Source: a virus (lineage: Duplodnaviria; Heunggongvirae; Uroviricota; Caudoviricetes). From it: a stretch of 19,570 nt of DNA. The notes beneath the pieces are model-generated. The model saw nothing but the letters and a program-made list of their open reading frames with translations. It did no database searches and had not been told where the DNA came from. Position numbers and translations under genes: made by a program. Positions 1,972 to 19,570 of the stretch are shown here, piece by piece. The DNA lies in IMG/VR virus record IMGVR_UViG_2541047862_000007. The stretch is one strand, 5' to 3'. Position 1 is the stretch's first letter. The number at the start of each line of letters is the position of its first letter.

Positions 1972-1996
1972 AAAAACAAGGCCGCGAAAGCGGCCT
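1972..1996 (-). terminator. Putative rho-independent terminator closing the cargo operon
   Basis: Minus strand reads AGGCCGC-TTTC-GCGGCCT followed by TGTTTTT, about 9 nt after the stop of the 104-aa gene. Confidence 0.55.
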
Positions 1997-2004
1997 GTGA
2001 CATG

Positions 2005-2319
2005 TCACGATAGTTCCGTTTTGTTGAATTCAATTATATCAAGGTCAGAACTTTCGTAATCCTTACCGAATAAAGCAAAACATATCGCGTCAAGTTCTCT
2101 CTTATGTTTGGACGCCCGATCATAATTACCACCCCAACAGCAAATGAATCCACCAAGTACTGCTGATTCAAAAAGTAATGATGCTGCATCAATATGTCTG
2201 AACCAGGAGTCTATAAGTAAAGCAGAGAGTGATATTAATGTTCCCCACCCGCCAATCCTTCTCCATTTCTCAGCTTCATATTTAAGAGAAGCAATATATT
2301 CAATTTTATCTCTCGTCAT
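2005..2319 (-). CDS. Small membrane protein, 104 aa, two predicted transmembrane helices; function unknown
   Basis: Start codon overlaps the stop of the upstream large gene (ATGA); hydrophobic segments GGWGTLISLSALLI and AVLGGFICCWGG; followed by a terminator. Confidence 0.6.
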   Translation of the reverse strand: MTRDKIEYIASLKYEAEKWRRIGGWGTLISLSALLIDSWFRHIDAASLLFESAVLGGFICCWGGNYDRASKHKRELDAICFALFGKDYESSDLDIIEFNKTELS

Positions 2320-17429: not shown

Positions 17430-18233
17430 TTAATCCGGCTTTGCGTTCTTTTGGCTGTTGTCTCGGTTAATAGGGCAGGCAGTCCTCTCTATGAGCGTTG
17501 CAAGAGCATTACTTGCCCCCCACTGCTTAAGCTCCCTGGTTATCGCTTCTTGATTTCCCCTGGTGGCAAAATCATTTTCTGGATCGTAATTGGCCCACTC
17601 TCTGTTTCTAATCTCAAGAGCCTTAGCTAATGGGTCTTTATCCCAGTATTTATATAAGTGTATCGGGCGCTCTTGCTCTAACTGCTCTATCCTTGCCCTT
17701 AACTCTGCGTTTTCTCTTTCCAGCATTGCGATTTGGGATAATAAATCATCCTCTGTACGCAACTCTTTCTTTTCAATATCGCGTCCTTGTGCCTCGTCAT
17801 TTTCAGAAGAGTTAGCGCCTTCCAGCTTCGTTAACGCGTCAAGGACATCGGGAAAAATTGCGAAAATTTCACCCCTTATAAATCCAATGTTCTCAAATTC
17901 GGGATCTTCCCAATAACCGGACACCAGAAAACCATTTTCATCCCTCTCACCAGGTAAACAACCATGTTTCCGAACCGCATCCAGATTTCTATAAAGAACA
18001 TCATAATCAAATTCATCCCGATACGGGTTACAAAAAGATTCCAACAGCTTAAATTCATTTACTGTGTACAGGCGGATATGTTCTCCGCTTATTCTCCTGA
18101 GTATCCAAGTTATGAGATCTGAAACATCATAATCATCACCAGCGACCTTAAGCACGACCTCAAGAAATTCACGTAAAGAAATAAAATCTTTTTTGTATTC
18201 GTTTAATTCGGCATGAATATCAATCATACGCAC
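17430..18233 (-). CDS. Hypothetical protein with central coiled-coil, 267 aa
   Basis: GAGGTG Shine-Dalgarno 6 nt upstream of the ATG; AT-rich relative to neighbours; heptad-like segment LLSQIAMLERENAELRARIEQLEQE; no recognisable catalytic motif. Confidence 0.7.
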   Translation of the reverse strand: MRMIDIHAELNEYKKDFISLREFLEVVLKVAGDDYDVSDLITWILRRISGEHIRLYTVNEFKLLESFCNPYRDEFDYDVLYRNLDAVRKHGCLPGERDENGFLVSGYWEDPEFENIGFIRGEIFAIFPDVLDALTKLEGANSSENDEAQGRDIEKKELRTEDDLLSQIAMLERENAELRARIEQLEQERPIHLYKYWDKDPLAKALEIRNREWANYDPENDFATRGNQEAITRELKQWGASNALATLIERTACPINRDNSQKNAKPD

Positions 18234-18355
18234 ACCTCAGCGTCCTCTACTGTAGTGGCTGTGCCAGCCCGTCGAGGTATACGGTTTTTCGGGAGCGACC
18301 CTAGACACAGCCTTTTCTTTCGTCGCTCAAAGTCTACTACTGTATACTCAACCAG

Positions 18356-19570
18356 TCATCCACATTTTCCGAACTTGCCATGCACCACGTTGCCGCCCTG
18401 TTCCAGTGAGTCCATATAGTCGGCGTACCACTGGAGCATCTCGCGCCGCCCGTCCAGATATTGCGCATGATTGTACGTGCCACGAATTGAGTTCTTATCA
18501 ACGTGTGCAAGCTGCGTTTCTATCCACGCGGTGTTATAGCCCTGCTCATGTAAAATCGTGCTCATCGTGTGCCGGAACCCATGACCAGTAACGCGCCCAG
18601 AATAGCCAATACGACGAATAAGCACGTTCATCGCCATTTCACTCATCGGCTTACTGTGCTGGATTCGACCAGGGAAAATAAACTGATACTGCCCCGTCAT
18701 GTGTTTTAACTGTTCCAGAATAGCGATCGCCTGTTCTGAAAGCGGCACACAATGAGGACGGCGCATCTTCATTCGTTCTTTAGGCACTTCCCACAAACGA
18801 TTATCAAAATCGATCTCCTGCCATTCTGCCTGTCGTAATTCCCCTGGCCGGAGCCCTGTCAGAATCAATAATCGCATACCCAGCTTGACGATCTGGCTTC
18901 CGGTGTACGTATTAAGAACGCGGAAAAATTCCGGCAGTTCGTCGGCCTTCAAATAGGCATAATGCTCTTTTTTGTGTGGAGCAAATGCGCTTGCCAGATC
19001 TGGTGCGGGGTTATATTCAGCGCGTCCGGTGATGATTGCGTACCGGAACACCTCGCCGCATCGCTGGCGAACCTTACGCAATTTTTCGGTCGCCCCACGG
19101 TCATTAAGACGGGAGAGAACCGCAAGCAACTCCATTGGCTTAATTTCTGCGATCGGCCTGCCGCCAATGTACGGAAAAACGTCTTTTTCAAACGTCTCGA
19201 TCATTTCCTCGGCGTATGACGATGACCACCTGTCGATCCGCTTTTCATACCATTCGCGAGCGATACCCTCAAAAGTATTGCCAAATTTGCTCGCCTGTTC
19301 TCGCTTTTGAGCTTTTCTGGCCTCACTTGGATTTATACCACCAGCAAGAAGCCTTTTAGCCTCATCCCTTGCCGCTCTGGCATCAGACAGAGACACATCA
19401 GGGTACACGCCCAACGACAACATTTTGGGCTTTCCTGCAAATCTGTAACGTAGTCGCCACCCTTTCGAGCCGTTCGGCTCAATGAGTAACGAAAGCCCGT
19501 TACCGTCATTGAGTGTATAAGCCTTTTCTTTCGGCTTCGCGCGCCTGATAGCAAGGTCTGAAAGCAGCAT
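18356..19570 (-). CDS. int: Tyrosine recombinase / integrase of the P4 integrase family, 404 aa
   Basis: N-terminal AIRRAKPKEKAYTLNDGNGLSL and RLRYRF motifs typical of P4-type integrases; C-terminal catalytic HGFRHT (HxxR) and RGTYNHAQY (tyrosine) motifs. Confidence 0.92.
   Translation of the reverse strand: MLLSDLAIRRAKPKEKAYTLNDGNGLSLLIEPNGSKGWRLRYRFAGKPKMLSLGVYPDVSLSDARAARDEAKRLLAGGINPSEARKAQKREQASKFGNTFEGIAREWYEKRIDRWSSSYAEEMIETFEKDVFPYIGGRPIAEIKPMELLAVLSRLNDRGATEKLRKVRQRCGEVFRYAIITGRAEYNPAPDLASAFAPHKKEHYAYLKADELPEFFRVLNTYTGSQIVKLGMRLLILTGLRPGELRQAEWQEIDFDNRLWEVPKERMKMRRPHCVPLSEQAIAILEQLKHMTGQYQFIFPGRIQHSKPMSEMAMNVLIRRIGYSGRVTGHGFRHTMSTILHEQGYNTAWIETQLAHVDKNSIRGTYNHAQYLDGRREMLQWYADYMDSLEQGGNVVHGKFGKCG

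Follow-up and report, generated by a model that had tools for sequence, protein, structure and literature searches.

The window analysed here, the whole 19,570-nucleotide stretch of the IMG/VR virus record IMGVR_UViG_2541047862_000007, is read as most of a phage satellite of the phage-inducible chromosomal island (PICI) type. The satellite is about 19.3 kb long, belongs to an EcCIMP1-like lineage, sits at a tRNA-Gly gene (glyU) of E. coli, is interrupted by the insertion sequence (IS) ISEc20 and carries a virion-gene module of the Uetakevirus type; we put the probability of this reading at roughly 55%. Judged by its genes, the element appears to be an EcCIMP1-like PICI with a Uetakevirus ejection module. 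Its anatomy is solid, and the function of the ejection module is what we infer. A sequence-only reading of this DNA had proposed a satellite with replication and regulation genes but no virion genes. The satellite half of that proposal was supported by a complete island with attachment (att) repeats, a second integration site, an iteron origin and replicase of its own, and a backbone homologous to that of EcCIMP1. The other half did not survive: three large open reading frames (ORFs) at 2319-9666 match PHROG virion families and are collinear with gp15-gp17 of phage epsilon15. The same reading was right that the window holds no capsid, portal, terminase or lysis gene; no capsid, portal, terminase, tail-fibre or holin/endolysin gene was found in it or in an IS-free copy of the element. 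The operon that contains the three ORFs is laid out as follows (aa, amino acids).

9970-10097, minus strand: conserved control region upstream of the 68-aa gene; a terminator-like hairpin (10076-10097) precedes
9763-9969, minus strand: 68-aa leader gene of the module operon (phrog_4934)
7135-9666, minus strand: gp15-like virion protein, 843 aa (phrog_992, E 1e-289)
5075-7135, minus strand: gp16-like virion protein, 686 aa, a chimera (phrog_1145, E 5.5e-137)
2319-5096, minus strand: gp17-like virion structural protein, 925 aa from a GTG (phrog_684, E 1.6e-295)
2005-2319, minus strand: 104-aa protein, apparently a two-helix membrane protein (from the ORF listing; no family match)
1979-1996, minus strand: terminator-like hairpin closing the module operon

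The PHROG matches of the three large ORFs span their full length; searches of the same three ORFs with Pfam, NCBIfam and PADLOC gave no match. At the nucleotide level, window positions 2329-9666 are about 78% identical to, and collinear with, gp15-gp16-gp17 of Salmonella phage epsilon15. The gp17-like protein, which is 918 aa long when started at the ATG at 5075 as annotated in the RefSeq copies, aligns over its full length with epsilon15 gp17. The gp15-like protein includes a peptidoglycan hydrolase domain at about aa 248-403 (8458-8925), with PDB sequence matches to 9vvp_L (Gp29) and 7q47_A (endolysin). The 104-aa ORF occupies the place where a small membrane protein follows gp17 in phiV10 (compared with phiV10p21); its product varies between satellite copies. 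Epsilon15 is listed among the podoviruses that have an ejection-protein operon and an internal core stack (PMC8954989). In genuine Uetakevirus prophages, the gp15-gp17 genes come directly after a T7-gp14-family core protein, within a full terminase-portal-capsid-tail operon.

The operon is headed by conserved PICI sequences. The 68-aa leader protein shares 88% amino-acid identity with the product of the gene that heads the capsid module of L007, a classical PICI of the EcCICFT073 type (about 10 kb, clpS/cspD site). Moreover, some 110 bp upstream of the leader gene, together with the preceding hairpin, are nearly identical in the window, in L007 and in L003, a copy of the satellite of a second type from strain ExPEC XM in which the 104-aa protein is not conserved. 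The hairpins at 10076-10097 and 1979-1996 flank a unit made up of the 68-aa, gp15, gp16, gp17 and 104-aa genes, and the module is sharply delimited, its edges falling at the start codon of gp15 on one side and after gp17 on the other. The operon had been cast as an accessory payload; it is instead a helper-derived virion module behind a PICI leader gene and promoter region. Since the module derives from a helper and lies behind the leader and promoter that drive the capsid module in a classical PICI, it belongs to helper exploitation rather than to cargo such as defence or virulence genes. No defence system was found by PADLOC among the 10 ORFs scanned (the module proteins, the small ORFs without a family, the replicase and the DUF4222 protein). 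The simplest reading is a PICI operon for helper exploitation in which the genes have been exchanged to match another kind of helper, and Uetakeviruses are probably the helpers of this satellite.

Boundaries and relatives of the island

All substantial genes of the window lie on the minus strand. The end distal to the integrase contains three further features.

1-1429, minus strand: ISEc20 (IS110 family) inside the element, transposase at 1-1197 (Pfam DEDD_Tnp_IS110 and Transposase_20)
1430-1978, no strand: distal segment, homologous to the region 3' of gp17 in phiV10-type prophages; homology to phages HEMP4 and phiv142-3 reaches 1731
1751-1912, plus strand: 53-aa ORF in the distal segment (product WP_000708858.1)

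Positions 1-1429 are 99.9% identical to annotated ISEc20 copies and have a GC content of 60%, and the alignment with IS-free relatives starts at window position 1425; ISEc20 is foreign to the ancestral element. It stands between the part of the element seen here and the far end, where relatives have attL and a second iteron cluster. The limits proposed earlier, 1972 and 19570, needed revision at both ends. The element extends to 1430, where ISEc20 cuts in and the rest lies past the window, and the tRNA-Gly attachment site is found about 165 bp beyond position 19570.

No tRNA gene lies within the window. The flanking tRNA and direct repeats that the sequence-only reading had advised locating were found in L001, the IS-free RefSeq copy from strain 82.0311, which is 99.9% identical to the window element. 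In this copy, yqeG and tRNA-Gly flank the island, which measures about 19.3 kb and has 18-19 bp of the tRNA-Gly 3' end repeated at each of its ends. The tRNA 3' end TTGGAGCGGGCGAAGGGAA has a second copy, differing by one deletion, at a distance of about 19.3 kb; in L001 the att core TTGGAGCGG(G)CGAAGGGAA recurs at the far end, and tRNA-Gly itself is 165 bp past the integrase gene. In ExPEC XM (L003), the same gene set lies between dinD and yicC with a different integrase. Structural phage genes contiguous with the element past the window would have made it part of a complete prophage. We checked L001 for them, and this complete IS-free island holds no further structural genes beyond the module. 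Terminase, portal, major capsid, tail, tailspike, lysis cassette and DnaT/P replication genes are missing from the window and from the whole L001 and L003 islands; the true prophages L004, L010 and L011 do have them, contiguous with gp15-gp17. A complete prophage reaching past the window is ruled out by the IS-free copies L001 and L003. The 53-aa product WP_000708858.1 is identical in the satellite L001 and the resident prophages L010 and L011.

The island has the landmarks by which a PICI is known: an integrase and an AlpA-family regulator that are co-directional at one end (both on the minus strand), a replication module of its own downstream of alpA (a DUF927 replicase and six iterons), and an attachment site with flanking direct repeats and a size of about 10-20 kb (as established from L001, the far end being outside the window). 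It departs from the rule that PICIs lack phage structural and lysis genes, with three genes for virion internal or ejection proteins, one of which has a peptidoglycan hydrolase domain. The core used by SatelliteFinder for types A and B, a capsid-morphogenesis gene together with terS or rpp, has no representative among the window ORFs. With nothing but int, alpA and a replicase to count, the element would rank as a 'type C' PICI. SatelliteFinder counts tail and holin genes as 'forbidden' (PMC10085698).

The closest described system is EcCIMP1, a 19,963-bp PICI of E. coli MP1 whose helper is the podovirus vB_EcoP_Kapi1 (Pick, Stadel and Raivio, ISME J 2025, PMC11773190). EcCIMP1 excises only with Kapi1 present, requires its own alpA and int to do so, and is transduced by Kapi1 (PMC11773190). 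Its authors identified no structural genes and considered its ejection-homologue ORFs, which are similar to Kapi1 proteins, only as candidates for packaging (PMC11773190). In RefSeq, the order of its genes is int, helix-turn-helix (HTH), AntA, DUF4222, Ash, Icd-like, a TOPRIM/DUF927 replicase, then an ejection block (DUF2824, a hypothetical protein, a 'phage DNA ejection protein' and a lytic transglycosylase) and PerC. Like the window element, EcCIMP1 is about 20 kb long and integrated at a tRNA gene, with a common gene order of int, AlpA, AntA, DUF4222, Icd-like, DUF927 replicase, ejection homologues and PerC. Thus, what marks the EcCIMP1 lineage, homologous int, AntA, DUF4222, Icd-like and DUF927 replicase genes in this order plus a podovirus ejection block, is found in the window as well. 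The integrases are 66% identical and the replicase C-termini 62%. The two ejection modules occupy the same position but share no sequence similarity, that of EcCIMP1 being of the P22/Lederbergvirus type. In addition, the EcCIMP1 replicase has a TOPRIM N-terminus that the window replicase lacks, and EcCIMP1 lies at tRNA Thr without a single-strand DNA-binding protein (SSB) and ProQ at the corresponding position, whereas the window element lies at tRNA-Gly and has both.

Other known systems match only in part. L007 shares with the window the integrase, AlpA-type HTH, YlcI, Icd-like, DUF4222, primase and SSB genes followed by the 68-aa leader gene. Its exploitation module is a ClpP-protease/major-capsid fusion with DUF1441, aimed at siphovirus helpers with HK97-fold capsids; the window element, about 19 kb long against about 10 kb, has three podovirus internal virion proteins at this place. 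Uetakevirus prophages (epsilon15, phiV10) have the gp15-gp17 order, a P4-type integrase and AlpA-like, PerC-like and Bro-N genes in common with the window, but they are about 39 kb long, with terminase, portal, capsid, tail, tailspike, lysis and DnaT/P-type replication genes that the window element lacks. P4-like satellites resemble it in their P4-family integrase at a tRNA gene, AlpA, large replicase and Icd-like gene; the differences are the DUF927 type of the window replicase and the helper implied, a podovirus rather than a P2-like myovirus. No match to the psu-delta-sid operon, epsilon or the alpha primase was obtained with Pfam, PHROG or NCBIfam among the 18 main ORFs. The literature searched contains no account of satellites with genes for helper-type ejection proteins, apart from what the EcCIMP1 paper mentions in passing.

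The regulatory and replication half of the element has no close relative among 50,697 phage records. The replicase and AntA region of the satellite is matched, with 65-74% identity, by four short records of 2-3 kb (OR845527.1, OR845563.1, OR851044.1 and OR851456.1) that were submitted as 'phages' of E. coli and Salmonella. They may represent related satellite DNA from particle preparations.

Mosaic ejection genes and exchange with prophages

The gp15 gene is a mosaic. Codons 1 to about 510 are of the phiV10 type (about 90% amino-acid identity to phiV10) and the remainder is of the epsilon15 type; past codon 510 or so, phiV10-type gp15 genes are unalignable with that of the satellite. Identity to the phiV10 proteins is only 31% for satellite gp16 and 27% for gp17. 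The gp16 gene is itself composite: both ends are of the epsilon15 type, and the central 234 or so residues (aa 259-492; 5660-6361; GC about 41%) are unrelated to phage gp16. This central domain holds LHHEALHLEQRH, an HExxH motif, which Uetakevirus gp16 lacks along with the domain. It had no Pfam or PDB sequence match, no homologue in a word-indexed homologue search, and none among the 50,697 phage records or the GTDB species representatives. An exhaustive HMMER search of 1.84 billion representative proteins returned a 74-aa fragment of the same protein as its sole match. The domain recurs in six IMG/VR contigs with 97-100% identity, and both contigs that were checked have the satellite layout. 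A single-sequence AlphaFold model was too poor to use (mean pLDDT, the predicted local confidence score, 50). The domain is possibly a metalloprotease, which we treat as a lead only; seen only in satellites, it is a candidate injected effector.

We then considered how widely the module is distributed and whether it is maintained. The satellite-type block is present in 37 of 5426 complete E. coli genomes, with 96.5-100% identity, and an epsilon15-type block (about 78%) is found inside real prophages in at least 12 other complete E. coli genomes. All three module ORFs are intact in every examined copy. Compared with epsilon15, the ratio of non-synonymous to synonymous substitution (dN/dS) is 0.04-0.07 for the module (gp17, 0.04), a value that is qualitative only because synonymous sites are saturated. 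Between the two satellite types, dN/dS is 0.19 for gp15 and 0.20 for gp17, and gp16 differs by 5 synonymous changes and a single non-synonymous one. Purifying selection acts on the module.

Two satellite-bearing genomes were inspected, and in both a complete Uetakevirus prophage lies at yfgI/guaA; their cassettes differ, being of the phiV10 type in one prophage and of a third, SLT-domain type in the other. Strain YZLc1-3, like ExPEC XM, harbours a Uetakevirus prophage next to the satellite in its genome complement. In ExPEC XM, the satellite gp15 is 97-99% identical to the copy in the co-resident prophage over alignment columns 600-1400, a range that includes a patch with 19% difference between the two satellite types. 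This high identity indicates recent gene conversion between the satellite and the resident prophage. A second gp15-like locus is present in 18 of the 37 satellite genomes as compared with 541 of 5389 others (10%), an odds ratio of 8.5 (p 3.6e-9) that is uncorrected for phylogeny. More generally, E. coli Uetakevirus prophages at yfgI/guaA carry at least three mutually very divergent gp15C-gp16-gp17 cassettes, of the epsilon15, phiV10 and SLT-domain types (L004 20003-27191; L010 13662-20454; L011 37009-43878). Since all of them stand behind a conserved gp15 N-terminus, they define a hypervariable ejection module. Ejection cassettes are thus an exchangeable, hypervariable module of E. coli Uetakevirus prophages, and satellites participate in the exchange.

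Regulation, replication and the pac-like segment

The remaining features of the window, from the integrase end towards the module, are listed here.

18356-19570, minus strand: P4-type tyrosine integrase (Pfam Arm-DNA-bind_3, Phage_int_M, Phage_integrase)
18244-18311, minus strand: int-alpA RNA motif, Rfam RF02996 (46.9 bits against a gathering score of 35.8, E 4.4e-07)
17430-18233, minus strand: 267-aa coiled-coil protein (only weak coiled-coil or bZIP-like matches)
17301-17417, no strand: three palindromes ACCCTNAGGGT upstream of alpA, putative operator region
17037-17234, minus strand: AlpA-family regulator (PF05930, E 2.4e-19)
16161-16961, minus strand: AntA/AntB antirepressor family protein (PF08346, E 7.6e-25)
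15611-16168, minus strand: BRO-N domain antirepressor-type protein (PF02498, E 5.1e-18)
15245-15442, plus strand: 65-aa ORF related to the YlcI/YnfO family gene
14990-15187, plus strand: YlcI/YnfO family gene (annotation of L001)
14581-14916, minus strand: Icd-like cell-division inhibitor gene (RefSeq annotation of L001)
14331-14588, minus strand: 85-aa protein (phrog_24341 and phrog_2512)
14026-14328, minus strand: DUF4222 protein (PF13973, E 3.8e-18)
11903-14029, minus strand: replicase, 708 aa, with an N-terminal domain of about 146 aa and a DUF927 helicase-type domain (PF06048, E 2.5e-46; phrog_1139, E 1.5e-174)
11746-11890, no strand: iteron cluster, putative replication origin; four direct and two inverted TGCGGGTTA copies, 21/11-bp spacing
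11267-11692, minus strand: SSB (PF00436, E 2.4e-16)
10733-11230, minus strand: ProQ/FinO family protein (PF04352, E 6.8e-24)
10336-10752, minus strand: 138-aa chimeric ORF, P1 PacA N-terminal fragment plus Ant/Roi N-terminal fragment (partial phrog_1711 and phrog_63 matches)
10100-10330, minus strand: PerC-family regulator pseudogene, frameshifted (RefSeq annotation of L001 and L003; three-frame translations)

Pfam domains confirmed what had been proposed from the letters for the P4-type integrase, AlpA, the two antirepressor-type proteins (AntA and Bro-N), the SSB and the ProQ/FinO protein. The int-alpA RNA motif lies just 3' of the integrase gene, between int and alpA. The Bro-N domain is 44% identical to the BRO-N protein of the resident prophage L010. 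The ORFs at 14990-15187 and 15245-15442 are in tandem, divergent from the Icd-like gene; both end in KEQE, and they share internal direct repeats with a spacing of 240-255 bp. A 396-aa ORF at 14581-15771 in the mechanical ORF list is probably an artefact, since it has no family match and smaller RefSeq-annotated genes lie there. The PerC gene is frameshifted in every examined copy and intact in EcCIMP1 and Uetakevirus prophages. We also asked whether the satellite shares operators with the helper repressor. Uetakevirus genomes contain 10-12 copies of TACC-N5-GGTA, the repressor operator pattern, and the window has one exact copy upstream of alpA, at 17381, so that one of the three palindromes fits the pattern. 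The second satellite type, which adjoins a verified resident prophage, lacks the site, and the local palindromes follow their own consensus ACCCTNAGGGT; shared operators remained a weak lead that we did not adopt.

The replication gene had been called a primase-helicase. A replicase with a DUF927 domain is indeed present, and it is 62% identical to the C-terminal 560 aa of the EcCIMP1 TOPRIM/DUF927 protein. The primase part of the label is not borne out: DUF927 is the only domain detected, and where the EcCIMP1 homologue has TOPRIM, the window replicase has another N-terminal domain (aa 1-146, 43% identical to the primase N-terminus of the classical PICI L007), so that primase activity is not evident. 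The adjoining iterons were likewise real, TGCGGGTTA occurring six times in 11755-11879, just downstream of the replicase gene, as compared with 0.17 expected in the whole window. Five further TGCGGGTTA copies form a second iteron cluster at the far end of the element in L001 (14541-14694), about 10.7 kb from the cluster next to the replicase. Two separated iteron clusters are reminiscent of ori and crr of P4.

The 138-aa ORF contains the only packaging-related sequence of the element. Window positions 10580-10735 are 83% identical in nucleotides to P1 pacA 90729-90884, within which the IHF site and the cleavage sites of pac are located. Both the IHF site and the centre of cleavage are preserved in the window, as are four of the seven TGATCA/G hexamers. 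The stretch is fused in frame to the Ant/Roi-like fragment and is present in both satellite types, the ORF being truncated in the second. The segment may function as a weak pac site of the P1 type or as a decoy, or it may be a scar. We discarded the idea of a Uetakevirus terS/pac relic, as the ORF is only marginally similar to the TerS proteins of phiV10 and epsilon15 (E 0.014 and 0.16, respectively); phiV10 has no P1-like hexamer array.

Possible function and competing explanations

The content of the module suggests that the satellite changes how helper particles inject DNA. Under this reading, the helper would be a resident or infecting podovirus of the epsilon15/phiV10 type. Its lytic growth, by analogy with EcCIMP1, would allow AlpA to activate the satellite, which would then excise, replicate from its iterons and express the module from the conserved PICI promoter region. 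The satellite ejection proteins may be incorporated into helper procapsids, with the first 510 or so residues of gp15, near-identical to the helper copy, conferring assembly compatibility; the gp15 C-terminus, gp16 and gp17, as a different allelic set, would give a different delivery apparatus. If the satellite proteins are built into procapsids, the particles would consequently deliver their DNA by means of an ejection apparatus that the satellite specifies. Satellite DNA may in this way enter cells, helper lysogens included, that block the apparatus of the helper itself, and the HExxH domain of gp16 may be co-delivered. It is tempting to extend this to an 'ejectosome-swapping' class of PICIs, of which the window element and EcCIMP1 would be two instances. 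Podovirus satellites of this class would routinely replace the DNA-ejection apparatus rather than the capsid, their own ejection proteins in helper capsids would decide which cells can be injected, the HExxH domain would be co-injected, superinfection exclusion and entry-level immunity of lysogens would be bypassed, and new cassettes would be fed to helpers by recombination. We regard this generalization as speculative and unlikely.

The chief rival casts the module as a payload for defence or superinfection exclusion: its ejection-protein homologues would act in the satellite-carrying cell, for example as dominant-negative partners or membrane decoys, and would block incoming Uetakeviruses without being part of particles. 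EcCIMP1 does raise superinfection immunity against its helper without lowering helper titre, no known defence system having been found in it (PMC11773190), and the same is true of the PADLOC scan of the window element; in addition, the satellite gp16 and gp17 are of another allelic type than those of resident prophages. The EcCIMP1 paper leaves this immunity unmapped to the ejection genes, however (PMC11773190), and the near-identity of the gp15 N-terminal half with the helper copy is a better fit to co-assembly. Furthermore, three large cytoplasmic proteins have no obvious path to the envelope site where an incoming ejectosome assembles, and the operon lies behind the promoter region that drives a capsid module in other PICIs. 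In-host exclusion thus fits the EcCIMP1 phenotype but fits the gp15 mosaic and the position of the operon less well, and we consider it rather improbable.

Mobilisation by a P1-like phage through the pac-like site, with the Uetakevirus genes as a by-product of recombination, would account for the conservation of that site in both satellite types, and an Icd-like gene with an Ant fragment recalls P1 immI-type functions. Loss of a single hexamer, however, reportedly lowers cleavage about tenfold (Sternberg and Coulby), and three of seven are gone. Icd-like genes are common in PICI backbones, and the intactness and purifying selection of 7.3 kb of Uetakevirus genes, as well as the enrichment of Uetakevirus prophages, would be left unexplained; this makes a P1-like helper very unlikely. 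An immobile, decaying chimera, in which the remnant of a Uetakevirus prophage has been joined to a P4/PICI-like island and the module now serves no function, would be in keeping with the PerC pseudogene, the chimeric PacA::Ant ORF, the IS insertion in the window copy and the lack of a recognisable packaging function. It is hard to reconcile with an identical architecture at two att sites with two integrases, with long ORFs that are intact in every examined copy at dN/dS well below 1, with the precise module boundaries and the conserved PICI promoter region, or with a replication system unlike the Uetakevirus DnaT-like and P proteins. Moreover, the homologous EcCIMP1 is mobile in experiments (PMC11773190), and we give decay equally little credence.

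Several observations weigh against our own reading of the element as a PICI with a working Uetakevirus ejection module. Epsilon15 gp15 and gp17 may act in a tail hub instead of in the core and ejection, and genetic work reportedly argues for a tail-tube role. Among packaging functions, no TerS, Rpp or helper-type pac site was found, the degenerate P1-type pac relic being the sole related sequence, and the element tolerates some decay, as the PerC pseudogene and the PacA::Ant chimera make plain. In about half of the genomes with the satellite, no second gp15-like locus is seen; the co-occurrence statistic ignores phylogeny, and the inspection of the second locus covers two genomes. ISEc20 disrupts the window copy, and the far end of the element lies beyond the window. 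Finally, helper-dependent mobilisation is a property of the homologue EcCIMP1, the window element being known from its genes alone, and for EcCIMP1 itself no role of the corresponding genes was demonstrated and transduction was inefficient (PMC11773190).

For the detection of satellites, these results mean that a screen which drops every element with phage structural genes will wrongly class satellites of this kind as defective prophages, and may wrongly class prophages as satellites. The idea of an ejection module offers a testable account of the unexplained ORFs of EcCIMP1 and of its helper-specific superinfection phenotype. The known points at which satellites pirate their helpers are three, namely capsid size, packaging specificity and whole-capsid production; an ejection-protein module points to a fourth, the delivery of DNA.

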